DNA of 64,000 nucleotides from Sulfuricellaceae bacterium (GTDB lineage: Bacteria; Pseudomonadota; Gammaproteobacteria; Burkholderiales; Sulfuricellaceae). The DNA lies in NCBI GenBank assembly GCA_031426915.1, contig JASJPB010000007.1, positions 2,996 through 66,995 of the forward strand, read 5' to 3'. The notes beneath the pieces were generated by a model. The model had not been told where the DNA came from and did no database searches. It saw only the letters and a program-made list of their open reading frames with translations. Positions 1,380 through 32,767 of this stretch are shown piece by piece. The position numbers and the translations under genes are program-made. Every line of letters starts with the position of its first letter. The first letter of the stretch is position 1.

Positions 1380-1982
1380 CTAGTTTCTGTAGCGTCGGAC
1401 CAGGCCGACCATGACGCCGTAGATTTCCAGCGATCCCTGCGGACGGATGACAGGAAACGCCTTGTTGTGCGGGCGCAGGATGAACTTGCCGCGTTCGATG
1501 GCCAGCTCCTTGAGGGTGAACTCGTTGTCCACGATGGCCACCACGAAATCCCCGGCGCTGGCGGCGGTGCCGCGCTCGACCACGGCGATGTCGCCGTCGT
1601 TGATCCCGGCGTCGATCATCGATTCGCCCCGGATGGGGATCATGGCGGTGCGGGAAGGGGTGCGCACCAGGTAGTCGTCGACGAAGAAGGGATCGCCGCC
1701 GACATCGTTGGCCAGCACCGGCATTCCCGCCGGCACCGCGGCATCCGCCAGCGGGCGCTCGAAGAAGCGCCTGGCCGGCACCCATGCATCGTCGTCCGGG
1801 GTGCGTTCGAGGAAACCCTGCGTTTCCAGGCGTTCGAGGAATTTGCGCGCTGCCGCCTTGGAAAAACCGATCAGCGTCGCGATGCGTTGCTGCGAGGGAA
1901 TGCGCCGGGCATCGGCGTAGTAATCGCGAAGCCTGGCGAGGTGTTCGTGGTCCCGATTCGGAGTGGGCATGGCAGAGTCCAT
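1380..1982 (-). CDS. LexA-family repressor (N-terminal HTH + S24 peptidase)
   Basis: N-terminal HTH-like PSQQRIATLIGFSKAAARKFLERLETQGFL; VPAG cleavage site, RGESM, FTLK. Confidence 0.85.
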   Translation of the reverse strand: MDSAMPTPNRDHEHLARLRDYYADARRIPSQQRIATLIGFSKAAARKFLERLETQGFLERTPDDDAWVPARRFFERPLADAAVPAGMPVLANDVGGDPFFVDDYLVRTPSRTAMIPIRGESMIDAGINDGDIAVVERGTAASAGDFVVAIVDNEFTLKELAIERGKFILRPHNKAFPVIRPQGSLEIYGVMVGLVRRYRN

Positions 1983-2230
1983 GGGTTATCGTATGGAAAC
2001 CATGATAGTTGCCAAATGAAAACCTGTCAAATGGCTCGCGGTTTCTACGGAGGCTTGTCTCCGTTTCACATTTTCCGAAGTACTCAATTGTAAAAAAACG
2101 GTTTTTACTGGTTGGAACCGCAAGATGTACAGTCAGCGCCCTATCGCCATGCTACCCCATTCCCTCTATCCTTTAGCTACATGGCGAGGATAGAACTGTT
2201 ACGGATTTCAAGGAGATAAGGGGGAATATC

Positions 2231-2419
2231 ATGGGAAAAGAAAACATGATCCGGCAACTCCTCAGGGGCTTCGAGTCTGATTTATATAACATGAGCCCTG
2301 CGGAATTGGAGCGGGAATTGAAAAGTGAGTGCATGCGCCTCAGTGAAAAAACCTATAGCGAGGTTGTCGAGCTGTACTACATGGATAACCCCGGTACTTC
2401 GTTGTTGCAGCTGCGCTGA
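2231..2419 (+). CDS. Small hypothetical protein (62 aa)
   Basis: ORF in an AT-richer intergenic stretch with purine-rich RBS (AAGGGGG) before ATG; no recognisable motif. Confidence 0.4.
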   Translation: MGKENMIRQLLRGFESDLYNMSPAELERELKSECMRLSEKTYSEVVELYYMDNPGTSLLQLR

Positions 2420-2697
2420 ACCCGGAGGATTCATCAGGCAGGGCGCCAGCACGCGCGCAGGCCCGGAGAACTGTCCGGGTCGAAGGTGCCGGGAGCTTGC
2501 CGAACCATCAAGCCGATGGGGATCAATCCCCTCTGCCAATATCATGGGCACGCAATGTCAGCAGCGCCTGGTCGTACTCGAAGCGTTCGATTTCCCGTCG
2601 CAGCTGGGCGGCAGTGGGTATGCGCTACTTGCAGCAGGTTTTTGTCGTCACGGCATGGCTGAGGGTCGGGAAAACGGCAGGTGGCGGAGAAGCCGCG

Positions 2698-2892
2698 TTA
2701 TTCCCTGGAAAGTGCGAAACAGTCGTCGCGCCACTTGCAGTCAAGCTGGTCGCATTCCTGGTTGCGGGCGCTGGCGAAACAGTCGAAATTGCCCTCCTGT
2801 TGCTGGATTTCCCGTATCAGATCGGCTTTGGACAGGCTTCCTGGCTCGATGTCATGCTGTTGCGCGAGTGTGTGTATTTCCTGCAGTTTCAT
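2698..2892 (-). CDS. SAP/Rho-N-like small protein with four C-terminal Cys
   Basis: MKLQEIHTLAQQHDIEPGSLSKADLIREIQQQEGNFDCFASARNQECDQLDCKWRDDCF: helix-extension-helix pattern plus 4 Cys. Confidence 0.7.
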   Translation of the reverse strand: MKLQEIHTLAQQHDIEPGSLSKADLIREIQQQEGNFDCFASARNQECDQLDCKWRDDCFALSRE

Positions 2893-3158
2893 AACTATTT
2901 CCCTGGTCTGGTCATGATGAGGTCGATGAATCGATGGCGGCACCAGCGGTTTACTTTAGCGCATAGGTCATGACATTGATATAGGCGGAATGAGGGGGCG
3001 CCCATTCCTTGTCGTGGTTTTCCGTTTTCCTCATTTTCCCGCAGCGTCGCCATGCAGAATGCCCGATTGTGCGTAATGGTTCACACTAAGTGCAGATTAA
3101 GTGCAGACAGGGTTTACCCCTGATGCCAATTCCGGCAAGGCTTTCTAAATCGCCAAGT

Positions 3159-3233
3159 ATGCAAGCTCCCATAAGCTGCCAGGTTTTGCTGGCGGAAGAC
3201 GATCCGGGCGACGCCAATCTGGCGCGCCATTCT
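3159..3233 (+). pseudogene. Receiver-domain N-terminal remnant
   Basis: MQAPISCQVLLAEDDPGDANLARH resembles receiver beta1-alpha1, then similarity is lost. Confidence 0.35.
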
Positions 3234-3312
3234 CCTCCCCGGGGCCGCCCTGGAAGCGGCGCGAAGCTGCGCCAGAATCTTGAGGAAACGCCGCTCATGC
3301 TGCCGGAAGCGG

Positions 3313-4617
3313 TCAGGCCTTGCCCGCCCCGGCGCAGCTATCGGGGGCCAGCAGCAAAAGGTCGCTGGTTCTCTGCAGCAACTGGCTCTGGCCTTCAATT
3401 TCCGCCAGCGAGGCTTGATATTCCTGAGAAATCTTCTGCATCAGTTCATGAAAAACAGGGTAGGGCACCCGGTCGAACTGCATTTTTGCTTCGCGCAGGG
3501 ATTCCCGGGCCGTTTGGGCCTCGATTTTCGTCGCCTCCAGCTTGTTCCGGGCGAGTTTGATATTTTCGAATGCTTGCTCCGTACCTAGCTGGATATCCAG
3601 ACGTGCCTGCTCGTCCAGGGTGCGGTTCACCACTACGGCCGCACTGAGTCGGTCCCAGTTGGCGCGCTCGGCTTCCTGAAAGTTGGCCGGCATGTTGATG
3701 CTCACGCCGGCGGTGGCAGCATAACCCCGCCTGTCGTTCGCATACTCGTCAATGTAGCTCACGCCCAGATGGAGGTCTGCATTTACGCTGCTGCCGGCGC
3801 CGATTTCGCGGTTATACAGCAGGGCTTCGCGCTGGGAGCCGAGCTTCCTGACGTCTACCGAGTGACGTTGCGCCGATTGGGTGAGTTCCGCGCTGGACAG
3901 GCAAAGTTGCGGAAAATCCGGCTGTGTCGGCTCAAAGGCGATAATGCTCTGGCCCAGGATCGAGTGCAGGGTATTCAGGGCCACGCGCTGCAGGGCGCGG
4001 AAACGTTGCAGCTCATCCCGTGCTGCAGCCAGGCCATTGTTGTAACGCTGATTTTCGCTGTCGGTCCACATGCCCTTCTCATGCAGTTTCCGGGCTGCGG
4101 GGGCATTGGCGGACAGTGAGTTGAGATACTGTCCGGTCAATCGTTCCGCCTGAATGTATTGCCAATACAAGGTGTACTGGTTGCGTAGCTGGTGCTGCAA
4201 ATGACGTCGCGCGTCATCCAGCTCGATCGAATTCAGCTGGATTTGCGTTTGCGCTGCCTTTATCGCCTCGAGTTGCTGTGCGCGGCCGCCCAGCAGTGGG
4301 TAGCTCAGCCCGACATGAGGCTGTAGCGCATTGTAGTTTCGGGTCAGATTGTCGGTGACGATCTGCCTGTGGTGCCCGACATCCAGCCTGCCGGAGATTT
4401 GCATTCCTTCCCTGGATTGTTCCAGGCGCAACAGTTGCTGCGCATAGTTGATTTGCGATTCCAGCGCCTTGAGACGTAGCGAGGAAGAAAGCCTGTCTTC
4501 AAGTTTGGACAGCGGCAATATTTCGGCGCGGGCCGCGAGCGGGACCAGCAACAGGCCCAGCATTGCGTAGCGCAAGGCGCGATTTTTTCTTGTGGTGATC
4601 TTTGATACGTGTGGCAT
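3313..4617 (-). CDS. TolC-family outer membrane channel
   Basis: Signal peptide (LLLVPLAARA), coiled-coil Gln/Ala-rich repeats, two beta-hairpin segments (VGLSYPL; GVSINMP). Confidence 0.85.
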   Translation of the reverse strand: MPHVSKITTRKNRALRYAMLGLLLVPLAARAEILPLSKLEDRLSSSLRLKALESQINYAQQLLRLEQSREGMQISGRLDVGHHRQIVTDNLTRNYNALQPHVGLSYPLLGGRAQQLEAIKAAQTQIQLNSIELDDARRHLQHQLRNQYTLYWQYIQAERLTGQYLNSLSANAPAARKLHEKGMWTDSENQRYNNGLAAARDELQRFRALQRVALNTLHSILGQSIIAFEPTQPDFPQLCLSSAELTQSAQRHSVDVRKLGSQREALLYNREIGAGSSVNADLHLGVSYIDEYANDRRGYAATAGVSINMPANFQEAERANWDRLSAAVVVNRTLDEQARLDIQLGTEQAFENIKLARNKLEATKIEAQTARESLREAKMQFDRVPYPVFHELMQKISQEYQASLAEIEGQSQLLQRTSDLLLLAPDSCAGAGKA

Positions 4618-4634
4618 GCAGGCCCCCTTTGTCT

Positions 4635-5942
4635 CTACCAGTGCGGAATCCTAGCCCATATTTTCTCCGGCACATAGGGGTGCCAGAGACGAATGCGCAG
4701 AAATTCCCGCAGCATGGAAAGCAGCTCCACCATATGAATCGGCAAGCGGTAAAAAGGGTAGAGCGGCACCAGCCACAGCATCTTCAAGCGGGGCGTGGAG
4801 GCGATGTCGTTGGCAATCAGCATCTTGATGAAAAGGAAGAAGGCGGTCAGCCAGTACATGACGGTCAGTAGCGCCGGCGCGGAGAAGGGGTCGCTCAAAG
4901 CGAAATAAATCACGCTCCACAGCGCGAGAAAGGGAAAAACGACCCGGAACAGCAGGATGTCGACGAAAACAAGCGCATTGACGATGCCAAAGTGCCAGAA
5001 GTGATAGAGATCTCCCTGCTTGTGCAGGCGGATCTTGACCATGTTCCGGGTCCAGCGGCTGCGTTGGCGCAACAGCCAGCCATAGTGGTCTGGCACATCG
5101 GTCCAGACGATGGCATCCAGCGCAAAGCGCAGTTTCCAGCCCTGCTTGCGCAAGCGTACCGTGAGGTCGGTGTCATCCCCCAGTCCCGAGTCGTAGCCGC
5201 CCAGTTGACGCATGGCGACGGCACGGAACATGCTGCCCGCACCGGGCAGAATCGACAGCAGATTCAAGGGTGCGCGCCACAGTCTGGAAATGCTCACGTT
5301 GAGCGCATATTCGCACTCCTGGAAGCGCGTGACCAGGTTGCGGGTCGCATTCTTCACGCGCAAATTCGCGGACACTGCGCCTACCCTGGGGTCGGCAAAA
5401 GGGGCGAGCAAATGCTGAATGATGCCGGGCTGCAGCTCGCAGTCCGCATCCGGCACGAAAATGAAATCTCCGCGCGCCAGAACCAGGCCGATATTCAGGC
5501 TGCTGGGCTTGCCGTTGTGGTTTTTTGCCTCGAATACGCGCACTCGCCCGGTTTTTTCCCATGCCCGTGCGCGCGCCACGCTCTCGTCGGTGGAGTAGTC
5601 GTCGACGAAAACGACCTCAAGATTTTGATAGCCGCATTGCAGTGCGGATTGAATCATTTTCGCAATGCTGTGCTCGACATTGCGCCCCGCGATGACGATG
5701 GAAACCAACGGGTTCGCGGGCAGGCCGGAACCTTGCGCGGCGGCCAGCGCGCGGGGGTAAAACAGGCAGGTCAGCCACAGCAGGATGTCGGGCAGCACAA
5801 AACGCATCAGGACCAGCACCACAAACCAGAAAAACAGATTGGCGGAAGTCAGCAGTTCGCCCAGTACGCGCGTCATCCCGCCCATGCTCACCAGGCTCAG
5901 CGGCGAGAGAAAGTACCCCAGGAAGCCATTCAGGTGTTCCAT
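4635..5942 (-). CDS. Processive GT2 polysaccharide synthase (PgaC/IcaA/HAS-like)
   Basis: VSIVIAGRN, DDYSTD, GKPSSLN, DADC (DxD), GDDTD, QRSRW (QxxRW); N- and C-terminal TM helices. Start chosen at MEHLNG. Confidence 0.9.
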   Translation of the reverse strand: MEHLNGFLGYFLSPLSLVSMGGMTRVLGELLTSANLFFWFVVLVLMRFVLPDILLWLTCLFYPRALAAAQGSGLPANPLVSIVIAGRNVEHSIAKMIQSALQCGYQNLEVVFVDDYSTDESVARARAWEKTGRVRVFEAKNHNGKPSSLNIGLVLARGDFIFVPDADCELQPGIIQHLLAPFADPRVGAVSANLRVKNATRNLVTRFQECEYALNVSISRLWRAPLNLLSILPGAGSMFRAVAMRQLGGYDSGLGDDTDLTVRLRKQGWKLRFALDAIVWTDVPDHYGWLLRQRSRWTRNMVKIRLHKQGDLYHFWHFGIVNALVFVDILLFRVVFPFLALWSVIYFALSDPFSAPALLTVMYWLTAFFLFIKMLIANDIASTPRLKMLWLVPLYPFYRLPIHMVELLSMLREFLRIRLWHPYVPEKIWARIPHW

Positions 5943-5945
5943 GAT

Positions 5946-6181
5946 CCTAGAAACCTCAGTTGGACGTGGTGGAGTGCGCGGTTTTTGGGACGCAGGGCAA
6001 GGCGCAATGACGCGGAATGGTCGTTCCATTCCAAGGAATTGCAACGCAGCCATGCGTCCCAAAAACCGTGTAATCCACCACGTAGCGGCCTCACCAAATG
6101 GGTGAACCCATGATTAACGAAGAAATTTATTATATTCATTGCATTACACACTCAATGGAGCGGTCAACTGAGGTTTCTAGG
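5946..6181. mobile_element. MITE-like element, 236 bp, with terminal inverted repeats
   Basis: CCTAGAAACCTCAGTTG (5946-5962) is the exact reverse complement of CAACTGAGGTTTCTAGG (6165-6181); ATGAT direct repeats at 5941-5945 and 6182-6186; internal imperfect inverted repeat. Confidence 0.8.
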
Positions 6182-7171
6182 ATGATGCTCCGCGCTGGTT
6201 GCCAGTTGAGTTGCCAGGTCGCTTTCCTGGTTGAGGTCGACAACTTGTGCCTGCAGCGCATTTCCCGCGCCGGCAAGAAAGCGCTTGAGCCATATATCCG
6301 CCCCGGCCCTGTCCGTTGCCGGTAGCAGGATCATCAGGCGCTCCTCTCCATAGCGCCCGATCTTGTCGGAATTCCTCAGACTCGCCGCCATGTGAAACAC
6401 CCGCTTTTCCGTTTGGGCCTCATCGCCCGCACCGAGCCGCACCATGATCAGGCTGAAGGCCGTGCCATAACGCTTGGCGCGGCGCATCTCGTCCTCGAGC
6501 AGGAACATGAAAACATGCCGGCGATAGATAGGGCGACCCTCTCCTTCCAGCAGCAGTTCTTCCTCCTGGTCGAACAGGCGTCCATTGTTCAGGGCCGCCA
6601 TGCCGAGAGAGCTCAGGCGGTAGCTGTGGACATCCTTGTGCAGCAGCTGGTCGCCCGGGGTGCGTGTCTGGCAGACCATGCACAGGCCTTCCACTTCCGG
6701 TACCTGGAACGAGGCGTGACAGCTGTGACAAGTGAAGTTTTCGCCCGGCACATCGTGGTCCGTGCCCAGGTCTTCCAGGCGGCCATGGCATTTCGGGCAG
6801 ATTCGCCCCTTGCCGTCATGGGCAAAGGCCTCGGCTGGCCCCACGTAGCCGCAGCGGAAATGGTGCAGCAGCGAAACCGGCGAGATGTGTGAGGATTTGC
6901 ACGCGGAGCATGCTTCGCGCACGTTGACGTGATGGCTCCCGCAGGAAGGGCAAACGCTCAGGCGATCGAAAAACTGTTTGTCCAGGTAGTCGGCCGTGGC
7001 GAGATATTCGAGGTCCTGCATCATCTGCTCGGCAACGCCCGTTTCAAACTGCGGAAAGTGGGTATATCCATGGGCGTGCCCGGCCTGCCACTGGGGCAGC
7101 AAATGGCCACCGCATTGCTGAACCTGCTGCAATACCACCATGGGTTCGGCGTACTTGTTATCCATAGCCAT
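6164..7171 (-). CDS. Multi-CxxC Zn-binding (TackOD1-like) domain fused to a degenerate GGDEF domain
   Basis: CPSC, CSAC, HFRC, CPKC, CHSC, CMVC; C-terminal EMRRAKRYGTAFSLIMV...LRNSDKIGRYGEERLMILLP. RBS GAGGAG before ATG 7171. Family name recognised from memory. Confidence 0.75.
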   Translation of the reverse strand: MAMDNKYAEPMVVLQQVQQCGGHLLPQWQAGHAHGYTHFPQFETGVAEQMMQDLEYLATADYLDKQFFDRLSVCPSCGSHHVNVREACSACKSSHISPVSLLHHFRCGYVGPAEAFAHDGKGRICPKCHGRLEDLGTDHDVPGENFTCHSCHASFQVPEVEGLCMVCQTRTPGDQLLHKDVHSYRLSSLGMAALNNGRLFDQEEELLLEGEGRPIYRRHVFMFLLEDEMRRAKRYGTAFSLIMVRLGAGDEAQTEKRVFHMAASLRNSDKIGRYGEERLMILLPATDRAGADIWLKRFLAGAGNALQAQVVDLNQESDLATQLATSAEHHPRNLS

Positions 7172-7194
7172 TTGGTGTTCCTCCTCTCTTGTCA

Positions 7195-8301
7195 CTAACT
7201 CTTGCCCCACAGCCATTCGCCCCACGATGAAACGGGGATCCTGACCTGTACCCTGGAATCGAAAATCAGCTGCTCCCGCAGCGCCGGGTCAAGCTTTTCC
7301 AGGTTGTCCAACGCGATTTTCACCGGACGGTACTGGGACCACTGGTTGTGCTGCCAGAAATAGCGGGTCAGCGTTTCGGGCAGTTTGGCGGCTTCAGGCG
7401 TAAGCGCTACGATATGCCCCGGCAAACTTTCTGAAATGCCCGGGATGCTGATGTAGGCGGGCATGCCGACACTGAGCCTGGAAATTTCCGCGGGGTCGGT
7501 GAAGACCATCACATAGGCCCGGTCGACATCGAAAATGCGGTAGATCGGCGTTCCCGCCTCGACCACGGCATTGGGATGCGCCGCGCAATCGAGCACTTGG
7601 CCCGAAGCGGGGGCCAGTAGCGGTTGCGTGCTGACGCGCTTGCGGGCCGTCTCTATCAGGCTTAACTGCTGTTCCAGGGAAGCGACTTTTTCCACGCTGC
7701 CTTTTTTGATCTGCGCCAGGTTCAGCTGCGACTTTTGCCAGGCTTCCCTCAGCGCAGCCGATTCCGCAGCCGCGCGCTGCCCGTCCGAACGGGCGGCGTC
7801 GCGCGCCATGCGTCCGATGGCGCGGGCATCGTACAGCTCGTCATAGGCCAGGGAGAGCGTCCTGGTCTTTTCTGCCGAGGAAGCTGCGGCCTGATAGTTT
7901 TGCCGCGCCATCTGAACTTCCATGGCGGCCGCGGCAGCGCCCTCGTTCTGGTTGATCCGTTCCAGATGCAATGAGGTCTGCCTGGTCTGGTAATCCGAGG
8001 CATATTGCTCATCGAGAATGAAGTTGCTCACGATGACCAGCGGCTCACCCGCTTTCACCTTGCTGTAGCAACTGGTGATCTGCTGGGTGATCTGGGCCCG
8101 GTAGAGCGGGGCGACCGGTATCAGATCGCCATGCAGCAAGCCTTCCACACGTACATTGGCGGGCGGCACGGCGACCGCATACGCGAAAGTGCCGCCAAGC
8201 AGCGGGACCAGGGCGATTCTGGCCCAGCGCCGTTTCTTGCCTGCCGCCACCGCGCCGGGGGTTGATTTTGACTGGGGTTTGCCGCGGAAATGCATGATCA
8301 T
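7195..8301 (-). CDS. HlyD-family periplasmic adaptor (membrane fusion protein)
   Basis: Single N-terminal TM after basic stretch, biotinyl-lipoyl half motifs (VKAGEPL; LLAPASGQV), long coiled coil. Confidence 0.88.
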   Translation of the reverse strand: MIMHFRGKPQSKSTPGAVAAGKKRRWARIALVPLLGGTFAYAVAVPPANVRVEGLLHGDLIPVAPLYRAQITQQITSCYSKVKAGEPLVIVSNFILDEQYASDYQTRQTSLHLERINQNEGAAAAAMEVQMARQNYQAAASSAEKTRTLSLAYDELYDARAIGRMARDAARSDGQRAAAESAALREAWQKSQLNLAQIKKGSVEKVASLEQQLSLIETARKRVSTQPLLAPASGQVLDCAAHPNAVVEAGTPIYRIFDVDRAYVMVFTDPAEISRLSVGMPAYISIPGISESLPGHIVALTPEAAKLPETLTRYFWQHNQWSQYRPVKIALDNLEKLDPALREQLIFDSRVQVRIPVSSWGEWLWGKS

Positions 8302-8305
8302 CTCC

Positions 8306-9202
8306 TTAATGTGAAGCTTGCGTCAGGATGGCGCTCAGGGACGGATAGTCGTTGATCGCTATGCCGCGATAGAACGGCGCATGAGTCTCCAGGCGCGCAT
8401 CGATCTCAAGCAGGGCTGCGCTGAACTGGTCAAAGGTGGCGCCGGCATAGCTGATATCCCTGCTGGCGCCCTGGTTTGTGGTGACACCGAACCACCACGG
8501 TTTTTTCATCGCATCCAGCTGCCCCAGCGCTTTTGCGGCGATGCGCAGGCCTTCGCCGGGAGCGCTACGGTAGGCCATCATGACCGTGGCATCGAGCTTG
8601 TCGGCCGCGCTCTCCAGTATGGATTTTCCTGCCCCGTCGGGAGCTGCGATGGCGGCGAAGAACGGAACCACCGCGGCCGTCAGCGGGAGCTTCATGCTTT
8701 GGCTGGCCTGGCGTATGTTGCCCAGCAGCTCCAGATACCCCTGGACGACCTGTTCGCGTGCGCCTGTTTTCCATTCCGGCAGCGCATGGGGCTCGATGTC
8801 GAGGCACAGCCCATCCATGAGCTTGCTGCGCTGCTGGAAATCGAGCAGTTCGTCCACCGCCCTGGGGATTTGCCGGCCGCGCCTGCTCCAGGCAGGGTCG
8901 CCGGCCACGGCGTAAAAAGCGATGCTTTCCTCGCGGCAGGCATGGAGGACAGCGTTTTGTTTTTGCCCGCCCGCGAACAGTTGTGCCCGCTCGCTGGGCG
9001 GGATCGAGTAAAACACGCTGCGGAAATTGAATTGACGTAGCGTAGCCATGACCTGATCCGATTCCGACAGCGGGGTGCGCCATACCCAAAGACTTTTGGG
9101 TATGGCGGCAAATGTGCTGCTGGCCCAGACCTGGCCAGACCGGCCCGCGATAGCAAGGCCAAACCCTGCGGCCAGGTACTTGAGGCATTGGCGACGCTGC
9201 AT
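8306..9202 (-). CDS. TAT-exported TIM-barrel protein, putative glycoside hydrolase (GH18-like)
   Basis: Twin-arginine-like signal MQRRQCLKYLAAGFGLAIAG; DGLCLDIEPH resembles the GH18 DxxDxDxE motif. Confidence 0.6.
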   Translation of the reverse strand: MQRRQCLKYLAAGFGLAIAGRSGQVWASSTFAAIPKSLWVWRTPLSESDQVMATLRQFNFRSVFYSIPPSERAQLFAGGQKQNAVLHACREESIAFYAVAGDPAWSRRGRQIPRAVDELLDFQQRSKLMDGLCLDIEPHALPEWKTGAREQVVQGYLELLGNIRQASQSMKLPLTAAVVPFFAAIAAPDGAGKSILESAADKLDATVMMAYRSAPGEGLRIAAKALGQLDAMKKPWWFGVTTNQGASRDISYAGATFDQFSAALLEIDARLETHAPFYRGIAINDYPSLSAILTQASH

Positions 9203-9237
9203 TGTCTTTCCCCTTTGACGTGAAACAAGCCCATGCT

Positions 9238-9297
9238 GTAGGAGCGAGCTTGCTCGCGATAGCAACCCGTGATGATCGCGAGCAAGCTCGCTCCTAC
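9238..9297. repeat. GTAG-type REP doublet (hairpin)
   Basis: GTAGGAGCGAGCTTGCTCGCGAT...ATCGCGAGCAAGCTCGCTCCTAC, 23-bp perfect arms; identical arms at 63371-63427. Confidence 0.9.
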
Positions 9298-9302
9298 GGT
9301 AC

Positions 9303-10550
9303 CTAGGCGGATGCGACCGCTCCGTCGAGGTTCAGACCGATGGGAGCTTCATTGAGCCTGTCGGCTTGCTCTTTTCCCTGAACTGCTTGTTGCAATCCGT
9401 GCTTCCAGTCCACTTTGGGCAGAATGGATGCTTCATTTACCCGGGAAGCCGCATTCGTCGCTTTTTGCAGCATCTGTCCGATCACCTCGCGGTTCAGCAG
9501 GTGCGGTTCGAGGCCCAGACCCTGCAAGCCGGAATGGACTGCGTGGTAATAGTGGTTTTCATTTTCCACGCGCGGGTTGCGAAGATGCTGGATGTCCACT
9601 TTCACGCCGTGAGCGGCGGCACTTTCCTGGACCAGCCAGGCCAGTTCCATGACGGTGAATTGCTCGGTGAACTGGTTGAAAACCCGGAATTCGCCGCTGT
9701 TGGCAGGATTTGTCACCGCCAGCTCGATGCATCGCAGCGTGTCGCGGATATTCAGATAACCCCTGACCTGGCTGCCGCTGCCATACACGGTGAGCGGCAT
9801 GCCGATCGCGGCCTGCACCACGAAGCGGTTGAGTACCGTGCCGAAGATGTGGTCGTAGTGGAAACTGGTGCACAGCTCCGGATCATCGCCGATCTCGTCG
9901 GTGGCTATGCCGTAGACCACGCCCTGATTCAGGTCGGTGACGCGAAGGTCCCACATCCGGCTGGCAAATTCCAGATTGTGGGAATCATGGACCTTGGACA
10001 GATGGTAGAGGGAATGGGGTTTCTTGGGATAGAGCACCCGGTCCTTGCGGCCGTTGTGCGTGACGTCCAGCCACCCCTCCTCGATATCGATGTTGGGCGT
10101 GCCGTATTCTCCCATGGTGCCCAGTTTCACCAGGTGGGCCTGCGGGCAATGTTCGCGCATGGCAAACATGACGTTGAGCGTGCCGATCACATTGTTGCAT
10201 TGCGTATAAACGGCATTGTCCTGACTCAGCATGGAGTAGGGCGCCGATGGCTGTTCGCCGTAATGGATGATGGCGTCCGGCCGGAAGTCATGGCAGAGTT
10301 CGTGCATGAGCTGACCGTCATCGGCGATGTTCCCGACCACCGCCTCGATGTGGCGAAATTTTTTCTGACGCCAGTGCCGCACGCGCTCCTGGAGCGTCGG
10401 CACGGGCTCAAGAGGCGTTGCCCCGACCTCTGCTTCCCAGCCGCGTTTGGCCATGTTGTCCACCACCACGACATCGTTGCCGCGCGCGGAAAAATGCATG
10501 GCCGTAGGCCAGCCCAGATAACCATCTCCACCCAGAATGCAAATTTTCAT
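9303..10550 (-). CDS. sqdB: UDP-sulfoquinovose synthase
   Basis: GGDGYLGWPTA, HYGEQPSAPYSM, LVKLGTMGEYGTPNIDIEEG, SLYHLSKVHDSHN, TDLNQGVVYG, GTVLNRF: SqdB/SQD1 signature motifs. Confidence 0.95.
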   Translation of the reverse strand: MKICILGGDGYLGWPTAMHFSARGNDVVVVDNMAKRGWEAEVGATPLEPVPTLQERVRHWRQKKFRHIEAVVGNIADDGQLMHELCHDFRPDAIIHYGEQPSAPYSMLSQDNAVYTQCNNVIGTLNVMFAMREHCPQAHLVKLGTMGEYGTPNIDIEEGWLDVTHNGRKDRVLYPKKPHSLYHLSKVHDSHNLEFASRMWDLRVTDLNQGVVYGIATDEIGDDPELCTSFHYDHIFGTVLNRFVVQAAIGMPLTVYGSGSQVRGYLNIRDTLRCIELAVTNPANSGEFRVFNQFTEQFTVMELAWLVQESAAAHGVKVDIQHLRNPRVENENHYYHAVHSGLQGLGLEPHLLNREVIGQMLQKATNAASRVNEASILPKVDWKHGLQQAVQGKEQADRLNEAPIGLNLDGAVASA

Positions 10551-10861
10551 GATCCTTCTCCCTGTCCTGAAACGATGGGGGTGCTACACGCTTACATTTA
10601 TAGTCCAGGGGAGTGGGTCAACAGTATGGGGTGAACACCCTAATCTGTAGTAGGTTCCTTTACTGAATACACGGTAGAAGTCTTCCTACACGAAGCGTGG
10701 TGCAGCGGTAACGAAGCGCTTGAGCCAATCTGCGTTACAGCCGCGGTTCGATGCGGAATATACGCGCTGAACTTACAGCATCCTGCGTATTGCCTGCCAT
10801 GGAGCGATTGCCTAACGTGGAAAGCACAGCGGGATGCTGAATTTCCACTAGCAGGTGAACC

Positions 10862-11894: not shown

Positions 11895-12157
11895 ATCTCC
11901 TGCAAGCGACGTCACGCATTTCTCTCTGCCCTGGAACCGCCCTGTAGCTCCGTTTCGCACTTCTGCTTTTCCCTACAGTCAATCCCCCCCCCGCAAGTTA
12001 AGTCCGGCGCGTAGCGAAATGCGGGGTTCGCCTCGGTGTCAATTTGTCGCACTTCATTAACAATCTGTCACAAGGATTTCAGTGGCGTGGGTGTCATGTC
12101 CAGTCGGCAAATCCGGGTCTAGCAAGTTTTGGATTAATGCGAGTGAGGGAGGCAGTT

Positions 12158-15100
12158 ATGGAACCCGAAGCCATCAACAACTTTAGCGGGGTGCTACGAA
12201 AAGTATGGCGCCTGATTTTTCTGTCTATCCTGATAGGAGTGTTAAGTCCCCAGTATGCGGCGGCGCTGACCATCAACGTGGTCGACCAGAACGGTGCTGC
12301 GATAACCGGAGGTTTCCGCTGGCTGATTGAAGAGGATGCCACCAAGGCATCCGTTCCAGGCCAGCTTGCCGGCGGTACCAATCTGGCCCTCAGCTTCCAC
12401 ACCAGCTACATGCCGGTAGTGGATGCAGGCAGGACCGCGAGTTCCTCTGCTGCCGTCACGCTTCCTGTGCCGGCCCAGCCGAAGCGCTACTTTGTCTCGG
12501 TCCTGCCGGATGGCAGTTACCAGATGGGGGGCGCAGCCGTCGTCGAGGGTGGTGAGAACGGCACGGTGAAAATCGTGGTGAACAAGACCCCGATCCCCAC
12601 CGCGCAAATATCCCTGTTCGTGTTCGAGGACAACCAGCCCATCAATGGTGCTCCCGATCTGCCTCAGGAATTGGGCCTGGCGAATTTCTCGGTCACCCTG
12701 AAGGAAGCCGGTGGCACGTATGGCGCCTCTGGTGGCCAGGTCATCCAGGATGCCTTCGGCAACCCGATCGGAACCAGCTACCAGCAATTGCCCAACGGTG
12801 ATTTCGTCTACAACACGCCGGGCGATCCGACGAGTGGTCCGGTGGTGCAAGCCCTGGGCAACGGATTCATCAAGACCGGGGCCGACGGCACGGTATTGAT
12901 CAAGTACCTGGCTCCTGCCAAGTACACCCTGGAGGTGATTCCTCCGGCGGGTTCCGGATTCATCCAGACCTCCACCATCGAGGGCACCAAGGGTATCGAC
13001 GCCTGGGTGAAGGCCAACGAGCCGAGCTTCTTCCAGGAATTCGGGCCGCCCGGACATCACGTGTTCGTCGGCTTCGTCAAGACCAACTTCAAGGATGCAT
13101 CCGTGCTTAACGGATCCACCACCATCAGCGGCAAGGTGGTGAACATGCATAGCAGCCGGCCGCCGAATTTCTCGTTTTTTAACGGCGACCCCTTTCCGCA
13201 GTGCTGGATCGGCCTGAACGAACTTGCCGTGACGACCGGGCGGGCGGTTTATACCACCCCCTGCAAGCCGGACAGCAGCTTCACGATTCCCAGCGTACCG
13301 CCCGGTTCCTACCAACTGGTGATCTGGGATGAAAACCTGGATGTCGTGATTGCCTCCAACAACGTCACGGTGAACCCGGATGGCTCGTGCCGAACAGCGA
13401 ATGGCAGCTGTGACCTGGCGGAAGTGCCGGTCTTCAACTGGTTCGGCAAACTGGAAAGCCGGGTGTTTTTCGATGGCAACGAAAACGGCTTCAGGGATGA
13501 CGGTGAAGTCGGCATTCCGGGCCAGGCGGTGAACATCCGCTTCCGCGACGGCAGCATTTACCAGTCGCAGGTCACCGATGCGAACGGTGAAGTCAAATTC
13601 AACGAAGTGTTCCCCTTCTTCAACTGGCTCATCGCCGAAGTGGATTTCGCGCGCTTCAAAGCCACGGGCGCCACCGTCGTGGTGGACGCAGGTGGTCCGG
13701 TTCCGCCCCACAACGGCTGGGCCGTGCCCTCCTGGAACAAGCTCAACCCGCAACCTCAGTCCGAGAACGCCGGCCTGCCTTACCGCACTGAAACCGGCCC
13801 GGTCCTGCTGGAAGGCATCCAGACTTTCCTCGGCCAGACCAACGTGATCGAGTGGGGCAAGAACAACTATGGCCCCGGCGACAACGGCGGGATTGCGGGC
13901 ATTGTCCATTACGGCATTACCCGTGCCGAGGCGGACCCACGCTACGCTGCGGCGGAAAACTGGGAGCCGGGCATTCCCCGCGTTCAGGTGAACCTGTACC
14001 GGGATTGCAACGGCGACGGCATCATCGACAAGCCCGACTGCACCCTGACCACCGGTCTCAACAGTGTAACCAGCTTCATTCTGGCCGATGTGGACAACTG
14101 GCCTTTCGGCAACTTCCCGGGCGCCGAGGATGTCGATCGTGATGGCAACAATCTATTCGACCAGGGCGATGCCTACAAGATCGGCACCACCGACAGCTGG
14201 GACGACAAGCTTCCCACCGGCTGCCAACTGGATGCAAGCGGCGTGCCTTTCACTTCCAACGGCTTTACCACCGACTGCTATGACGGCCTGCGCAACTTCA
14301 ACCAGGTGCGCCCGGCAGTGTTTGACGGCGGCTATGCCTTTGGTCCGCCAGCCGGGGACGTGGCTCTGCCACCCGGCAAGTACGTTGTCGAGGCAGTTGC
14401 TCCGCGCGGCTATGTGACACTCAAGGAAGAAGACAAGAACGTGGATTACGGCGACGCCTACAAGCCGAGCCCCCTGTTCCTGCCGCCGGTTTGCGTGGGC
14501 GATCCCCATCTTGTGCCCGCCGAGCTCTCCCTGTTCCCCGGTGTTCCCGTGGATCCGTCCATGGCTGGACAGACCCGGCCCCTGTGTGATCGCAAGAGTG
14601 TCGAAGTTGTCCAGGGCAAGAACGCGGCCGCTGACTTCTTCATGTTCACCGAAGTGCCGGTTGCCAGCCACATTGTCGGCATGATCCTCAACGACCTGGC
14701 CAATGAGTTCGACCCCAACGCGCCTACATTCGGCGAGAAACTGGCGCCATCCTGGGTGCCGGTGTCGATCCGTGACTGGACCGGCAAGGAAATCTCCCGC
14801 GTGTACTCTGACCAGTGGGGCACCTTCAATGCACTGGTGCCGTCCAGCTACTCGGTGAACATCCCCATGCCCTCCGGCGTGGCTCCCAACATGCTCACTA
14901 CCTGCATGAACGACCCCGGCCCGATCCCGGACGCGGGCGGCAATCTGGTCATCGACCCCTACTTCGACCGCCAGTACAGCCAGTTCTGCTACACCTTCCA
15001 GTACCTGCCGGGCAAGACCACCTACCTCGACACCCCGGTGCTGCCGGTGGCTGCTTTCGCCGGTCCAGGGCAATTCCCGGTGGACTGCGAATTCACCGAC

Positions 15101-17275
15101 GGTACGCCGGTTGTCTACACGGTGGAAGGAACGACCTCGGGTGGTGCCAGCCATCACGGCCCGTATGTGCCGACGCCGAGTCTCAATATCGCCACCCAGC
15201 CCAGGCTGCGCATCGTTTCGGCTGGCAGCGTGCAGGTGGCCAATCCCGCCTATGACGGTACCGCCGCAACGCCCAGGTTCATTGCTCGCGACTTCGGCTT
15301 CGGCGCACAGGGAGCCAACAGCAAGGTGACAATCAACAACGTCAGCCTGCCGATCATCTCCTGGGATAACGGCGTCATCGTGGCGCGCGTTCCGAGCGGG
15401 GTGGCCACCGGCCAGCTGGTCGTGACACGCGACAACACCACCAGCACCAGGACTTCCCTGCTGGGTGCCACGGTTACGGTAGGCGGTGCATTGCCGACCG
15501 TCGTTGCTCCTGGCGGCAGCATCCAGACCGCCATCGACGGCACTTTGCAGGGCCGCCTGATCCTGGTTCCGCCCGGTCGCTATGACGAGTTGGTGATCAT
15601 GGACAAGAAGGTGAAACTCCAGGGTTGGGGCGCGCTTGCGACCAACATCAACGCCGCCAAGGTGCCTGCTGAAAAGCTCGCGAAATGGCGTGCAGATGTG
15701 ACCCGGAAGTACGCCAACGGAGGCGCTGCACGCACCTTCGACCTGGTGCCTGGCCAGACGGTTGGCTTCAACGCTCCCAACAACGAACCCAACCTGTTCA
15801 ATACCGAAGAAGGTCCCGGCATCCTGGTGGTGTCCCGCTCCAGCGGCGGCCAGGCGTTCAACAATACCAACCCGGCCCGCATCGACGGCTTCAGCATCTC
15901 AGGCGGTGACTCCGGCGGCGGTATCTTCGTCAACGGCTTCGCCAAATACCTGGAGATCAGCAACAACAAGATCTTCAGCAATGCGGGCACCTACGGTGGC
16001 GGCATCCGTATCGGCCACTTCAATGTGGAAACCAACGATGCCGACAACGACTTCATCAATATCCACAACAACCATATCGCGCAAAATGGCGGTCAGGGCG
16101 GTGCGGGTGGCGGTGTGTCGATCTACGCCGGCACGCAGGTGTACAACCTTGCCAACAACTATATCTGCGGCAACTTCACTGCCGGCCACGGCGGCGGCAT
16201 CGGCCACCTGGGCAGCAGCAACCGCGGTGTGATCGCCAACAACACGGTGATCTTCAACCAGTCCTTCGACCAGGGGACCAACGTCTCCGGCGGCGGTATC
16301 TACATCGGCGGACAAGCACCGCTGGTGGCCGGTACCCTCTCCCCCGGCACTGGCAACGTGACCGTGAGCGGCAACCTGATCCAGGGCAACCTGGCCGGGG
16401 CCGGCGACGGTGGCGGCATCGCGGCACAGTTCGTCAACGGGGCAGACATCGTCCCGGCGCCCAACAACGTGACCAACTGGAACCGCCTGACCCTGGTGAA
16501 CAACATGGTGGTGGACAACATCGCCGGCATGGCGGGTGGCGGTATCTCCCTCCAGGACGTGGCCTTGTCGACGGTCGCCAACAACACGGTTGCCGACAAC
16601 CACAGTACGGCCACTGCGGGCGCCGCCTTTGCGCCTAACAGCCCGAACCAGTCCACGGCCCAGCCGGCGGGGATCGTTTCCCGTGCCCACAGCACACTCC
16701 TCGCCAATACCATCGGTAACGGTCCAGCGGTAAGCACCTACAAACGCTATGCCAACCCGACGCTGGTGAACAACATCGTGTGGCACAACCGCTCGTTCTT
16801 CTGGACCATCGACAACACCACTGCGCCGCCCACCTTCGGGTTGCAGCCTTATGCCGCGAACCCGTACTGGGATCTGGCGGTAGTGGGCACCGCGTTGCCG
16901 ACCCTGTTGAACCCCAGGTTCAGCGACCTGACCGATGCCACGGGCTATCACGTGAGCAACATCGCGGTTAACCCGATGTTCATGGGCGAGGCGATGATCG
17001 GACCGCGCGGGGAGATTATCCAGCAACCGGAGTTCACCACCGGTATCGATACTGCTCCGGCTTTCGACGAGGGCGGCAACTGGATCGACGTGCGTTTCGG
17101 CATCGGCGTTCTGGCTGCACCCAGCCTGCTCAGCCCGGCTGGCGATTTCCACCTGCAACCTGGCTCCCCGGTCATCAATCTGGGAACCCAGAGCGCTGGC
17201 GTGACGCCGACCACCGACATCGATGGACAAGCCCGCTCCAACCCGCCCGACATTGGTGCGGACGAGCAGCAGTAG
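12158..17275 (+). CDS. Giant secreted protein (~1705 aa): SdrD-B-like, IPT/TIG, right-handed beta-helix, choice-of-anchor-Q-like C-terminus
   Basis: Signal peptide ending PQYAAA; RVFFDGNENGFRDDGEVGIPG; FGAQGANSKVTINN...SWDNGVIVARVP; SIQTAID plus NNxIxGN/GGGI repeats; FHLQPGSPVINLG...DIDGQARSNPPDIGADE. Confidence 0.85.
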   Translation: MEPEAINNFSGVLRKVWRLIFLSILIGVLSPQYAAALTINVVDQNGAAITGGFRWLIEEDATKASVPGQLAGGTNLALSFHTSYMPVVDAGRTASSSAAVTLPVPAQPKRYFVSVLPDGSYQMGGAAVVEGGENGTVKIVVNKTPIPTAQISLFVFEDNQPINGAPDLPQELGLANFSVTLKEAGGTYGASGGQVIQDAFGNPIGTSYQQLPNGDFVYNTPGDPTSGPVVQALGNGFIKTGADGTVLIKYLAPAKYTLEVIPPAGSGFIQTSTIEGTKGIDAWVKANEPSFFQEFGPPGHHVFVGFVKTNFKDASVLNGSTTISGKVVNMHSSRPPNFSFFNGDPFPQCWIGLNELAVTTGRAVYTTPCKPDSSFTIPSVPPGSYQLVIWDENLDVVIASNNVTVNPDGSCRTANGSCDLAEVPVFNWFGKLESRVFFDGNENGFRDDGEVGIPGQAVNIRFRDGSIYQSQVTDANGEVKFNEVFPFFNWLIAEVDFARFKATGATVVVDAGGPVPPHNGWAVPSWNKLNPQPQSENAGLPYRTETGPVLLEGIQTFLGQTNVIEWGKNNYGPGDNGGIAGIVHYGITRAEADPRYAAAENWEPGIPRVQVNLYRDCNGDGIIDKPDCTLTTGLNSVTSFILADVDNWPFGNFPGAEDVDRDGNNLFDQGDAYKIGTTDSWDDKLPTGCQLDASGVPFTSNGFTTDCYDGLRNFNQVRPAVFDGGYAFGPPAGDVALPPGKYVVEAVAPRGYVTLKEEDKNVDYGDAYKPSPLFLPPVCVGDPHLVPAELSLFPGVPVDPSMAGQTRPLCDRKSVEVVQGKNAAADFFMFTEVPVASHIVGMILNDLANEFDPNAPTFGEKLAPSWVPVSIRDWTGKEISRVYSDQWGTFNALVPSSYSVNIPMPSGVAPNMLTTCMNDPGPIPDAGGNLVIDPYFDRQYSQFCYTFQYLPGKTTYLDTPVLPVAAFAGPGQFPVDCEFTDGTPVVYTVEGTTSGGASHHGPYVPTPSLNIATQPRLRIVSAGSVQVANPAYDGTAATPRFIARDFGFGAQGANSKVTINNVSLPIISWDNGVIVARVPSGVATGQLVVTRDNTTSTRTSLLGATVTVGGALPTVVAPGGSIQTAIDGTLQGRLILVPPGRYDELVIMDKKVKLQGWGALATNINAAKVPAEKLAKWRADVTRKYANGGAARTFDLVPGQTVGFNAPNNEPNLFNTEEGPGILVVSRSSGGQAFNNTNPARIDGFSISGGDSGGGIFVNGFAKYLEISNNKIFSNAGTYGGGIRIGHFNVETNDADNDFINIHNNHIAQNGGQGGAGGGVSIYAGTQVYNLANNYICGNFTAGHGGGIGHLGSSNRGVIANNTVIFNQSFDQGTNVSGGGIYIGGQAPLVAGTLSPGTGNVTVSGNLIQGNLAGAGDGGGIAAQFVNGADIVPAPNNVTNWNRLTLVNNMVVDNIAGMAGGGISLQDVALSTVANNTVADNHSTATAGAAFAPNSPNQSTAQPAGIVSRAHSTLLANTIGNGPAVSTYKRYANPTLVNNIVWHNRSFFWTIDNTTAPPTFGLQPYAANPYWDLAVVGTALPTLLNPRFSDLTDATGYHVSNIAVNPMFMGEAMIGPRGEIIQQPEFTTGIDTAPAFDEGGNWIDVRFGIGVLAAPSLLSPAGDFHLQPGSPVINLGTQSAGVTPTTDIDGQARSNPPDIGADEQQ

Positions 17276-17287
17276 CCGCGGCACTGA

Positions 17288-17310
17288 CCCGCCGGGTTGG
17301 TCCCGGCGGG
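17288..17310. other. GC-rich intergenic hairpin
   Basis: CCCGCCGGG-TTGGT-CCCGGCGGG between the giant gene and the first cupredoxin gene; no U-tract on the + strand. Confidence 0.5.
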
Positions 17311-17329
17311 CCGAAAAAAGGAGAAGATC

Positions 17330-18532: not shown

Positions 18533-18554
18533 TCCGCGAAACGAGGAGGACGAC

Positions 18555-19850: not shown

Positions 19851-19867
19851 ACCAGGGAGCAGCAATC

Positions 19868-21817: not shown

Positions 21818-21860
21818 CGGCGGAGGCCGGCTCCCGTGATCCGGGGGCCGGCCAGCCTGA

Positions 21861-22415
21861 ATGATCCAGTCGGGATGCAAGGGAGAAAACATCATGGACA
21901 ATTTTCATGTTTCAAGCACTTGCAGTTGCAGGCAGGCGGAGCCGGCATTCGGGATGCTGGCGCTGATGCTTTACCTGTTCATGGTGGTGCTGCTGATGTC
22001 CGGTTGTGCGGCCACCAAGGGTCCGGTGTCCGGGAAGGACGGCCCGGATGCCATCACCCGCCCCACCAATTGCAAGTCGGAAGAACGGCTGGGTATCCGC
22101 ATCGAGGGGCTGCGTCTCTCGGCGGCCGGCAACATGCTCGATCTGCGCTATCGCGTGAATGACTCCGAAAAGGCCGCTCCCTTGTTCGAGCGCAAGACCC
22201 GGCCCTACCTGCTCGACGAGGCAAGCGGGGCGGCCTTTGGCGTGCCGGACTCGCCCAAGGTCGGACAACTGCGGACCACCCGGCGCAACAGCGACCCCCT
22301 GTCCGAGCGCGACTACCACATCCTGTTCGCCAATCCAGGGCACCTGTTGCAGGCCGGACAGAAGGTTTCGCTGGTGATCGGCGAGGTGAAGTTGGAGAAC
22401 ATCGTTGTCCAGTAG
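21861..22415 (+). CDS. Conserved hypothetical lipoprotein
   Basis: Hydrophobic stretch ending LMSGC; RBS GGAG; co-oriented in the operon. True start may be downstream. Confidence 0.7.
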   Translation: MIQSGCKGENIMDNFHVSSTCSCRQAEPAFGMLALMLYLFMVVLLMSGCAATKGPVSGKDGPDAITRPTNCKSEERLGIRIEGLRLSAAGNMLDLRYRVNDSEKAAPLFERKTRPYLLDEASGAAFGVPDSPKVGQLRTTRRNSDPLSERDYHILFANPGHLLQAGQKVSLVIGEVKLENIVVQ

Positions 22416-22432
22416 CCAAGGGGAGGCGAGCC

Positions 22433-24760: not shown

Positions 24761-24791
24761 GTTCGAAAGCCACCATGAAGGGAGAAACCGA

Positions 24792-25469: not shown

Positions 25470-25479
25470 GACGCGCGCC

Positions 25480-32766: not shown

Positions 32767-32767
32767 G

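Follow-up and report, generated by a model that had tools for sequence, protein, structure and literature searches.

The 64-kb stretch of Sulfuricellaceae DNA analysed here (the window) carries six co-oriented minus-strand genes at 3313-10550, headed by sqdB and including genes for a family 2 glycosyltransferase (GT2), a periplasmic adaptor and a TolC-like protein. We conclude that this operon probably encodes a synthase-dependent, envelope-spanning system for the production and secretion of a sulfoquinovose-bearing anionic polysaccharide, a reading built on observed gene identities, folds, motifs and a conserved linkage to sulfur-donor genes. A first-pass annotation of the window had called the six genes as sqdB, a twin-arginine (TAT) TIM-barrel protein, HlyD, a Zn-finger/degenerate GGDEF protein, GT2 and TolC, and domain and family searches showed all six calls to be correct. 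In operon order from sqdB, the genes are as follows.

9303..10550, minus strand: sqdB, UDP-sulfoquinovose synthase, 415 aa (NCBIfam NF041015, SQD1 structures)
8306..9202, minus strand: periplasmic (β/α)8-barrel protein with a leader of twin-arginine type, 298 aa, putatively hydrolysing or trimming the polymer (AlphaFold2 model, family alignment)
7195..8301, minus strand: HlyD/EmrA-type membrane-fusion (periplasmic adaptor) protein, 368 aa (HlyD_3 and HlyD_D23 domains)
6164..7171, minus strand: cytoplasmic TackOD1 zinc-ribbon and degenerate GGDEF protein, candidate receptor for cyclic di-GMP (c-di-GMP) (PF18551, motif reading)
4635..5942, minus strand: membrane-embedded processive-type GT2 synthase, 435 aa (Glyco_tranf_2_3, Glycos_transf_2, motifs, AlphaFold2 model)
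3313..4617, minus strand: TolC-family outer-membrane factor, 434 aa (OEP domain)

Products of the six genes

SqdB enzymes make UDP-sulfoquinovose and were earlier tied to the sulfolipid sulfoquinovosyl diacylglycerol (SQDG) and to the N-glycans of Sulfolobales (Agl3). As aligned, the window protein is a full-length SQD1 homologue with intact catalytic residues. It matched the NCBIfam UDP-sulfoquinovose synthase model NF041015 over model positions 1-384 of 384 (E = 9e-134, 446 bits) and, using phmmer, the Arabidopsis SQD1 structures 1QRR/1I24 over residues 2-384 (E = 6e-140), with 53% identity to SQD1 across 383 aligned columns. The N-terminal NAD site of the extended short-chain dehydrogenase/reductase (SDR) fold is present (GGDGYLGW, matching GxxGxxG), while the catalytic Thr145, Tyr182, His183 and Lys186 (SQD1 numbering) are kept within GTMGEYG and YHLSK. 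The same Thr, Tyr-His and Lys residues are conserved in 19/19 SqdB homologues linked to a GT2, and many close homologues are annotated as UDP-sulfoquinovose synthase by the Joint Genome Institute (JGI). In a sediment metatranscriptome, a single run contained three short contigs from a close relative of this sqdB (weak evidence); the other operon genes had no coverage in the metatranscriptomes, where only sqdB contigs matched.

The GT2 motifs reported at first pass (DxD, D and QxxRW) are present as VDD (residues 113-115), DAD (165-167), GDDTD (255-259) and QRSRW (293-297), and are invariant across 24 homologues. The protein matches the Pfam families Glyco_tranf_2_3 and Glycos_transf_2, as well as Glyco_transf_21, the ceramide glucosyltransferase family (6e-16). 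Its best NCBIfam match is PgaC/IcaA (1e-34, below the model cut-off), and the named models scoring best by sequence are PgaC, NodC and chitin-synthase-type. The AlphaFold2 model (predicted local distance difference test (pLDDT) score 86) places helices at the N- and C-terminal sides of the GT-A domain. Using Foldseek, we found that it aligns with class I hyaluronan synthases at a template modelling (TM) score of 0.72 over ~420 residues, despite a sequence identity of 16-18%, and with cellulose and chitin synthases at ~0.5. The chain ends ~20 residues past the last helix, and an extra C-terminal (c-di-GMP-binding) domain is absent.

The adaptor combines HlyD_3 and HlyD_D23 (barrel-sandwich) domains with a single N-terminal transmembrane segment (residues 27-45), and EmrA is its only PDB match by sequence. 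In the TolC-like protein the OEP domain was matched in two stretches, the NCBIfam match to type_I_sec_TolC is weak and the N-terminus holds a hydrophobic, signal-like segment. The GT2, adaptor and TolC-family genes thus all lie within one operon, and they are co-linear in at least 7 related genomes. With no ATP-binding cassette (ABC), resistance-nodulation-division (RND) or major facilitator superfamily (MFS) pump encoded in the operon, the synthase is presumably the docking partner of the HlyD adaptor.

The fourth product, most likely starting at 7171, carries a TackOD1 domain (PF18551; E = 6e-42, 143.8 bits against a cut-off of 32) with several CxxC pairs. The function of this domain is not known (PMC5847659). 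It is followed by a GGDEF-like domain matched at E = 3e-4 (20.9 bits, below the Pfam cut-off of 23.8). In its motif, RNSD-KIGRY-GEER, the active site is lost and the RxxD I-site is kept at the canonical spacing, five residues upstream. The GG(D/E)EF signature is degenerate in all 24 full-length TackOD1/GGDEF homologues, and the I-site reads R[NDEA]xD in the proteobacterial ones. On the basis of this conserved RxxD motif, a role for the window protein as a c-di-GMP receptor resembling PelD or PssE is plausible. Elsewhere in the window, a diguanylate cyclase of dCache-PAS-PAS-GGDEF architecture, whose domain is intact, is encoded at 41068-43356, ~31 kb from the operon, and a histidine kinase coupled to a protoglobin, together with two response regulators, at 49496-52834; these could feed c-di-GMP signalling and show no linkage to the operon.

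The TackOD1 plus GGDEF-like architecture is found in 1,413 representative clusters (E ≤ 1e-10), many of which bear a further domain of ~150 aa at the N-terminus. On the Phyllobacterium zundukense plasmid NZ_CP104972.1 (L047:6652-10335), a 464-aa 'hypothetical protein' with TackOD1 is followed by a GT2 gene, whose product is 30% identical to the window GT2, and by a HlyD-family gene. This suggests that TackOD1 proteins and GT2 synthases are generally paired, beyond the sqdB-linked clade.

Homologues of the TIM-barrel protein, for which only 39 clusters were found, begin at an internal ATG (9202), giving 298 aa. No Pfam or NCBIfam model matched the protein, even at relaxed thresholds. Its leader (MQRRQCLKYLAAGFGLAIAG...VWA/SS) is putatively of the twin-arginine type, judging from the motif and from an alignment of the family, in which RR is the consensus. 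An AlphaFold2 model built on a 27-sequence alignment is a (β/α)8 barrel (pLDDT 89), and W39, T43, D135, E137 and P138 are among the residues invariant in the family, D135-x-E137 following strand 4. The best PDB folds are glycoside hydrolase family 18 (GH18) chitinases, GH84 O-GlcNAcase, MTHFR and other TIM barrels, at TM scores of only ~0.5. From this model we regard the protein as a putative periplasmic trimming hydrolase of the kind usual in such operons, with its specificity assigned at low confidence. In the Eremiobacterota loci described below, a Laminin_G/GH26-like protein stands in its place.

Linkage of the synthase to sugar-sulfur routes

A GT2 profile was run against genomes sampled at one per species, which gave 43 loci, and these were then searched with the six window proteins. 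The closest homologues of the GT2 and of the TIM-barrel protein come from genomes named Sulfuricella, and near-identical sequence is present in groundwater metagenomes. The full six-gene order was found in four Sulfuricella-like genomes, in one of Gallionellaceae and in Acidithiobacillus genomes including an A. thiooxidans assembly, the Acidithiobacillus loci having been found by exact-protein look-up.

Both a TackOD1 protein and the GT2 are encoded in 29 species-representative loci. In 17 of these, sqdB lies 0.2-4.2 kb away from the GT2 gene. The 17 loci span Beta/Gammaproteobacteria, several alphaproteobacterial lineages and Eremiobacterota/Vulcanimicrobiota. The synteny of sqdB with GT2, HlyD and TolC genes, proposed as a check at first pass, is therefore conserved across phyla. 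The GT2-linked SqdBs fall into three sublineages, with 58-86%, 43-46% and 38% identity to the window protein, and the genes occur in two arrangements, co-oriented and divergent. Members of the 43-46% group always diverge from the GT2 gene at a distance of ~250-300 bp, and the 38%-identical versions were found in two loci. Three SqdB sublineages in two architectures across phyla point to functional coupling and would otherwise be hard to explain. Two Eremiobacterota loci carry sulfur-supply genes alongside: directly upstream of sqdB in L010 (1023-5202) are genes for TauE, adenosine 5'-phosphosulfate (APS) kinase, ATP-sulfurylase and a 498-aa protein, and directly upstream in L011 (6017-6640) is a cysteine dioxygenase gene.

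A further 8 of the 29 loci, mostly from Baltobacteraceae and Velthaea (Eremiobacterota), lack sqdB and instead hold genes for synthesis of 3'-phosphoadenosine 5'-phosphosulfate (PAPS) and a putative sulfotransferase. Loci of the PAPS type (L014, L019 at 1664-7449, L023-L025, L031, L039, L044 and L045) carry cysD, a cysN/cysC fusion or APS kinase, a TauE/SafE permease and two conserved proteins, u247 and u256, neither of which has a match in Pfam or NCBIfam at relaxed thresholds. The u256 protein starts with IHVPKAAGNSFRE, a PKxxGxS motif resembling the PAPS 5'-phosphosulfate-binding loop, and the only meaningful match of its profile to the PDB is a weak one to heparan-sulfate 6-O-sulfotransferase (E = 1e-3). 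The cytoplasmic u247, with as many as 3 copies in a locus, is shared by some alphaproteobacterial loci that do carry sqdB. The remaining 4 of the 29 loci, with neither sqdB nor PAPS genes, are each cut by a contig end on one flank. Nearly every informative member of the synthase family therefore adjoins a sugar-sulfur route, which gives independent support for a sulfo-polymer product.

SqdB homologues were also found outside this setting. In a Hyphomicrobiales metagenome-assembled genome (MAG; L050:1-19182) and a metagenome contig (L051:1-19170), homologues 63-64% identical to the window protein belong to clusters for surface glycans, not to sulfolipid loci; NeuB, CMP-sugar transferases, sulfotransferases, radical-SAM enzymes and glycosyltransferases of family GT4 are encoded alongside. 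This suggests that sulfoquinovose may also enter capsule- or O-antigen-like glycans and is perhaps commoner in bacterial glycans than recognized.

Proposed mechanism and alternatives

In the system that we propose, SqdB would convert UDP-glucose (UDP-Glc) and sulfite into UDP-sulfoquinovose (UDP-SQ) in the cytoplasm. The hyaluronan-synthase-like GT2 would polymerize this donor, alone or with a common UDP-sugar such as UDP-N-acetylglucosamine (UDP-GlcNAc) or UDP-Glc, and pass the growing chain through a membrane channel of its own. From there, the adaptor (HlyD) and the TolC-like duct would take it across the periplasm and outer membrane, in a tripartite assembly with the synthase in place of the usual inner-membrane pump. 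The TackOD1/degenerate-GGDEF protein would be the regulatory subunit, probably binding c-di-GMP at the retained RxxD I-site, and the periplasmic TIM-barrel protein would trim or release the polymer. Within this scheme we infer the GT2 donor, the polymer itself, the binding of c-di-GMP and a physical GT2-adaptor-TolC complex.

The donor proposed for the GT2 differs from UDP-Glc at C6 only, and in hyaluronan synthase (HAS) one GT2 domain alternates GlcNAc with a C6-acidic sugar and translocates the chain through its own channel. Class I enzymes such as Chlorella virus HAS and Xenopus HAS1 (PDB 7SP6, 8SMM) resemble the window GT2 in combining a single GT2 domain with their own transmembrane channel, and their polymer is acidic owing to glucuronic acid (GlcA), which is charged at C6. 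Unlike the window system, HAS acts alone, with no adaptor or TolC, and the acidic donor in the window system would be UDP-SQ (C6 sulfonate) rather than UDP-GlcA (C6 carboxylate).

Several exopolysaccharide (EPS) systems, namely Alg8/Alg44, PelF/PelD and Listeria PssC/PssE, pair a glycosyltransferase with a dedicated c-di-GMP receptor, PelD and PssE acting via a degenerate-GGDEF I-site. Alg44 contains a membrane-fusion-protein-like domain, and such EPS operons include a periplasmic hydrolase or lyase. The candidate receptor of the window differs from these in being soluble and in carrying a TackOD1 multi-zinc-ribbon instead of GAF, PilZ or transmembrane domains, while the outer-membrane part is TolC-like rather than a TPR protein with a β-barrel porin.

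In Sinorhizobium meliloti, TolC is needed for the mixed-linkage β-glucan (MLG) of BgsA (GT2) and BgsB (HlyD), and a tripartite complex was proposed in 2026 (PMC13438883). The window operon resembles BgsA-BgsB-TolC, whose production of Bgs polymer is stimulated by c-di-GMP, in its membrane GT2, HlyD-type adaptor and TolC duct (PMC13438883). It differs in having the TolC gene in the operon, a GT2 without the C-terminal c-di-GMP-binding extension of BgsA and a separate TackOD1/GGDEF candidate receptor; it also adds sqdB and a periplasmic TIM-barrel gene, whereas the MLG of Bgs is a neutral glucose polymer. The likeness of BgsA and BgsB to the window proteins is one of architecture only. A second parallel is the Sinorhizobium uxs1-uxe-apsS-apsE-apsH cluster for an arabinose-containing polysaccharide (composition from PMC12560781). 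As in the window, nucleotide-sugar genes head that operon, defining the unusual sugar of a c-di-GMP-dependent EPS, and are followed by a synthase-type GT2 gene and export or accessory genes; we take ApsS to be the GT2 and ApsE the HlyD protein. Compared by gene content only, aps differs in its sugar pathway (UDP-xylose/arabinose), in the action of c-di-GMP via CuxR and in having no TackOD1 or TolC gene. Searching a plasmid database with the window GT2 by tblastn gave matches only ~30% identical; one of these, in Sinorhizobium medicae (L048), was considered as an aps cluster and dropped, the locus not being aps.

With the SQDG pathway (SqdB/SQD1 plus SqdX/SQD2 or SqdD) and the Sulfolobus Agl3 pathway, the window system shares its first enzyme and an identical catalytic set. 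It departs from both in that UDP-SQ would be consumed by a processive membrane GT2, not by a GT4/GT8 lipid glycosyltransferase or one for dolichol-linked N-glycans, and from the SQDG pathway also in its hosts, which are non-phototrophic chemolithotrophs and soil bacteria. Synechan, the sulfated acidic EPS made by the cyanobacterial Xss cluster, carries sulfate esters added by PAPS-dependent sulfotransferases and follows a Wzx/Wzy-type pathway. The PAPS-synthesis and putative sulfotransferase genes of the sqdB-less loci recall synechan; the window system, in contrast, is synthase-dependent and would carry a C-S sulfonate supplied by the sugar nucleotide. The parts list belongs to a known kind of machine, in which synthase-dependent EPS production is combined with an adaptor, a TolC duct and a separate degenerate-GGDEF partner. 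What is new is the sugar (UDP-SQ outside SQDG and Sulfolobales N-glycans), the TackOD1 partner and an apparent family-wide commitment to sulfo-polymers; the polymer product is probably novel.

A number of observations weigh against a secreted sulfoquinovose polymer and are taken here together with the alternatives that they favour. Literature searches on sulfoquinovose in bacterial EPS, capsule, biofilm and Acidithiobacillus returned no relevant report. As for regulation, several Eremiobacterota members have lost the I-site, and one Baltobacteraceae subclade has no GGDEF-like domain; because RxxD is lost in some members, a receptor role resembling that of PelD or PssE cannot be universal.

Some matches of the GT2, namely those to the Glyco_transf_21 (6e-16), NodC and HpnI models and to a ceramide glucosyltransferase structure among its PDB sequence matches, would fit an enzyme like NodC, ceramide glucosyltransferase or HpnI whose product is a sulfoquinovose glycolipid or short oligosaccharide, exported or inserted into the outer membrane by HlyD-TolC. 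HlyD-TolC systems usually export small molecules or lipids. We nevertheless consider such a product unlikely. The best matches of the GT2 are polymer synthases, both by sequence (PgaC) and by fold (hyaluronan synthase, TM 0.72, all transmembrane and interface helices being present); a secreted glycosidase-like TIM-barrel protein is a hallmark of EPS systems, as is a degenerate-GGDEF partner; and no ABC, RND or MFS pump that could pass a small product to the adaptor is encoded in the operon.

The GT2 might also polymerize only a common sugar (Glc or GlcNAc), with sqdB serving a sulfolipid or another glycoconjugate via a glycosyltransferase elsewhere and being co-regulated with biofilm formation. 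GT2 orthologues do occur in genomes without sqdB: proteins 47-51% identical to the window GT2 were found with no sqdB, TackOD1 or sulfur genes within 10 kb. Such stand-alone or unlinked orthologues belong to an Azospirillum clade (L003, L015, L017 and L018) and to L009/L052 and L030. In L003, L017 and L018 only the GT2, TIM-barrel and HlyD-like genes are kept, with no TackOD1, sqdB or TolC gene, and in L052, an alphaproteobacterial MAG, two polysaccharide deacetylase genes lie 7-8 kb from the GT2 gene. Adjoining the L003 genes are a type I secretion system and a gene for a giant RTX/cadherin protein. The TIM-barrel protein is most like the GlcNAc-dependent GH18 and GH84 folds. In an alignment of the sqdB-linked, PAPS-linked and unlinked classes, no charged GT2 residues separated the three, and only three uncharged positions differed. 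A dedicated UDP-SQ pocket is therefore not visible, and the alignment says nothing about the donor sugar. The GT2 may accept a common UDP-sugar and use UDP-SQ as a co-substrate or close analogue; alternatively, the sqdB-less genomes with GT2 orthologues may keep sulfur genes elsewhere.

Where sulfolipid enzymes are concerned, the first-pass annotation had noted no SqdX/SqdD-like glycosyltransferase in the window, and Pfam scans across the 64 kb, covering ~40 further open reading frames, likewise revealed no GT4/GT8 and no other glycosyltransferase besides the GT2. None adjoins sqdB in L001, L049, L010-L012, L020, L036 or L041 (GT4/GT8). This absence covers the window and the inspected sqdB flanks only, and a sulfolipid glycosyltransferase may be encoded elsewhere in the genome. 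A polymer of common sugars nonetheless appears improbable given the linkage of the GT2 to three SqdB sublineages in two arrangements across phyla, the replacement of sqdB by PAPS and sulfotransferase modules in sister loci, the lack of GT4/GT8 next to sqdB in the inspected loci and the co-location of sulfur-supply genes with the whole cluster.

It is very unlikely that the SqdB-like enzyme makes a different nucleotide sugar, such as a 6-deoxy or 4-keto intermediate, instead of UDP-SQ. SDR enzymes shift specificity easily, two loci have an SqdB only 38% identical to that of the window, and the window protein, at 446 bits, falls below the NF041015 curated equivalog cut-off of 575 bits; that cut-off is the threshold of one curated model and not a mechanistic feature. 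Against this stand the 53% identity to SQD1 over 383 columns, the SQD1-specific Tyr-His together with Thr and Lys in all 19 linked homologues, the adjacent sulfate-activation genes (L010) and cysteine dioxygenase gene (L011), and the JGI annotation of close homologues.

The last alternative concerns the window genome itself and the repeats within its operon. The intergenic gaps, in order from sqdB, are 100, 4, 23, 221 and 17 nt. They had been described at first pass as short apart from two repeat insertions, and this description held: the two long gaps are accounted for by dispersed repeats, a repetitive extragenic palindromic (REP)-like hairpin and an element resembling a miniature inverted-repeat transposable element (MITE). 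The non-coding features are as follows.

9238..9297, no strand: REP-like perfect 23-bp inverted repeat (100% complementary), located between sqdB and the TIM-barrel gene
5940..6187, no strand: MITE-like insertion between the TackOD1 and GT2 genes, with 23-nt terminal inverted repeats and an inner 35-nt inverted repeat
10551..10861, no strand: non-coding region upstream of both the operon and a divergent gene for an SLT lytic transglycosylase, presumably holding the promoter

The perfect 23-bp hairpin in the 100-nt gap (GTAGGAGCGAGCTTGCTCGCGAT) has an identical second copy at 63371-63428. The MITE-like element in the 221-nt gap spans ~248 bp between terminal repeats (CAACTGAGGTTTCTAGGAT...) at 5940-5962 and 6165-6187, which enclose the inner repeat, and a third copy of the terminal-repeat end lies at 32750-32768; for both repeat families the chance expectation is 0 matches. 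Three close relatives (L004, L005 and L006) have no such element at this junction. The last ~9 codons of the window TackOD1 gene are read from the element, and the ATG of the GT2 gene lies inside its right-hand repeat.

This insertion between the regulator and GT2 genes could be polar in the window genome, which likewise counts against a working system there. With strong internal hairpins, it might uncouple or silence the GT2 and TolC genes and so cripple the operon, while the system may work in relatives. We regard a crippled operon as highly improbable: none of the six reading frames is disrupted, the terminal repeat preserves the GT2 ATG and an upstream purine-rich stretch, and REP/MITE elements in operons are commonly transcribed through. 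Scans for sigma-70 promoters and terminators in the operon gave results no better than shuffled sequence, and a consensus scan found no convincing sigma-70 promoter in 10551-10861. Rfam and tRNA scans of the window returned no matches; as the Rfam scan was empty, there is no riboswitch, c-di-GMP riboswitches included.

Beyond the sulfoquinovose polymer of the window, a wider reading can be offered tentatively, although we hold it to be doubtful. The window GT2 would belong to a widespread, undescribed family of TackOD1-partnered, hyaluronan-synthase-like enzymes secreting C6-sulfo polysaccharides, with the sulfo group supplied via two interchangeable sugar-nucleotide routes. On one branch, SqdB would make UDP-SQ; on the other, a cytoplasmic heparan-sulfate-6-O-sulfotransferase-like enzyme would make a UDP-hexose 6-O-sulfate with PAPS as donor. 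The two nucleotides would be near-identical in shape, differing by a bridging oxygen. The window product would then be a hyaluronan-like copolymer with sulfoquinovose (SQ) in place of glucuronic acid (for example, [SQ-GlcNAc]n) or poly-sulfoquinovose, leaving by the GT2-adaptor-TolC duct.

Window neighbourhood and significance

Adjoining the operon on the plus strand is a large cluster (12044-27126) that may serve extracellular metal oxidation or act as an adhesin system. It encodes a 1743-aa SdrD_B/CarboxypepD_reg protein, SCO1/SenC, a cytochrome c protein, an S8 subtilase and three multicopper-oxidase-like proteins; the subtilase and one of the oxidase-like proteins have Big_9/cadherin domains. 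Further along the window are genes for a HipA-family toxin kinase (27703-28959), an IS200/Y1 transposase (30221-31072) and a GH15 glucoamylase-like protein (47566-49596), together with an aa3-type cytochrome c oxidase cluster at 54661-62905 (COX2 with fused cytochrome c, COX1, COX3, SURF1, CtaA, CtaB and SCO1).

This work defines a six-gene module, extends the recently proposed GT2-adaptor-TolC secretion architecture and gives the orphan TackOD1 domain a functional context as an EPS-synthase partner. Sulfoquinovose is among the most abundant organosulfur compounds and has been attributed almost wholly to photosynthetic SQDG, plus the N-glycans of Sulfolobales. If our reading is correct, a secreted sulfoquinovose polymer from chemolithotrophs that oxidize sulfur and iron (Sulfuricella, Gallionellaceae and Acidithiobacillus), from soil Alphaproteobacteria and from Eremiobacterota would constitute a new class of bacterial EPS. 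Sulfonated, glycosaminoglycan-like polymers of this kind would be of biotechnological interest. The polymer would be permanently charged, with an acid-stable C-S sulfonate, which would fit acid mine, groundwater and metal-rich habitats and be relevant to bioleaching biofilms. Chemolithotroph biofilms would then supply sulfoglycolytic bacteria with sulfoquinovose in the dark, independently of photosynthesis.

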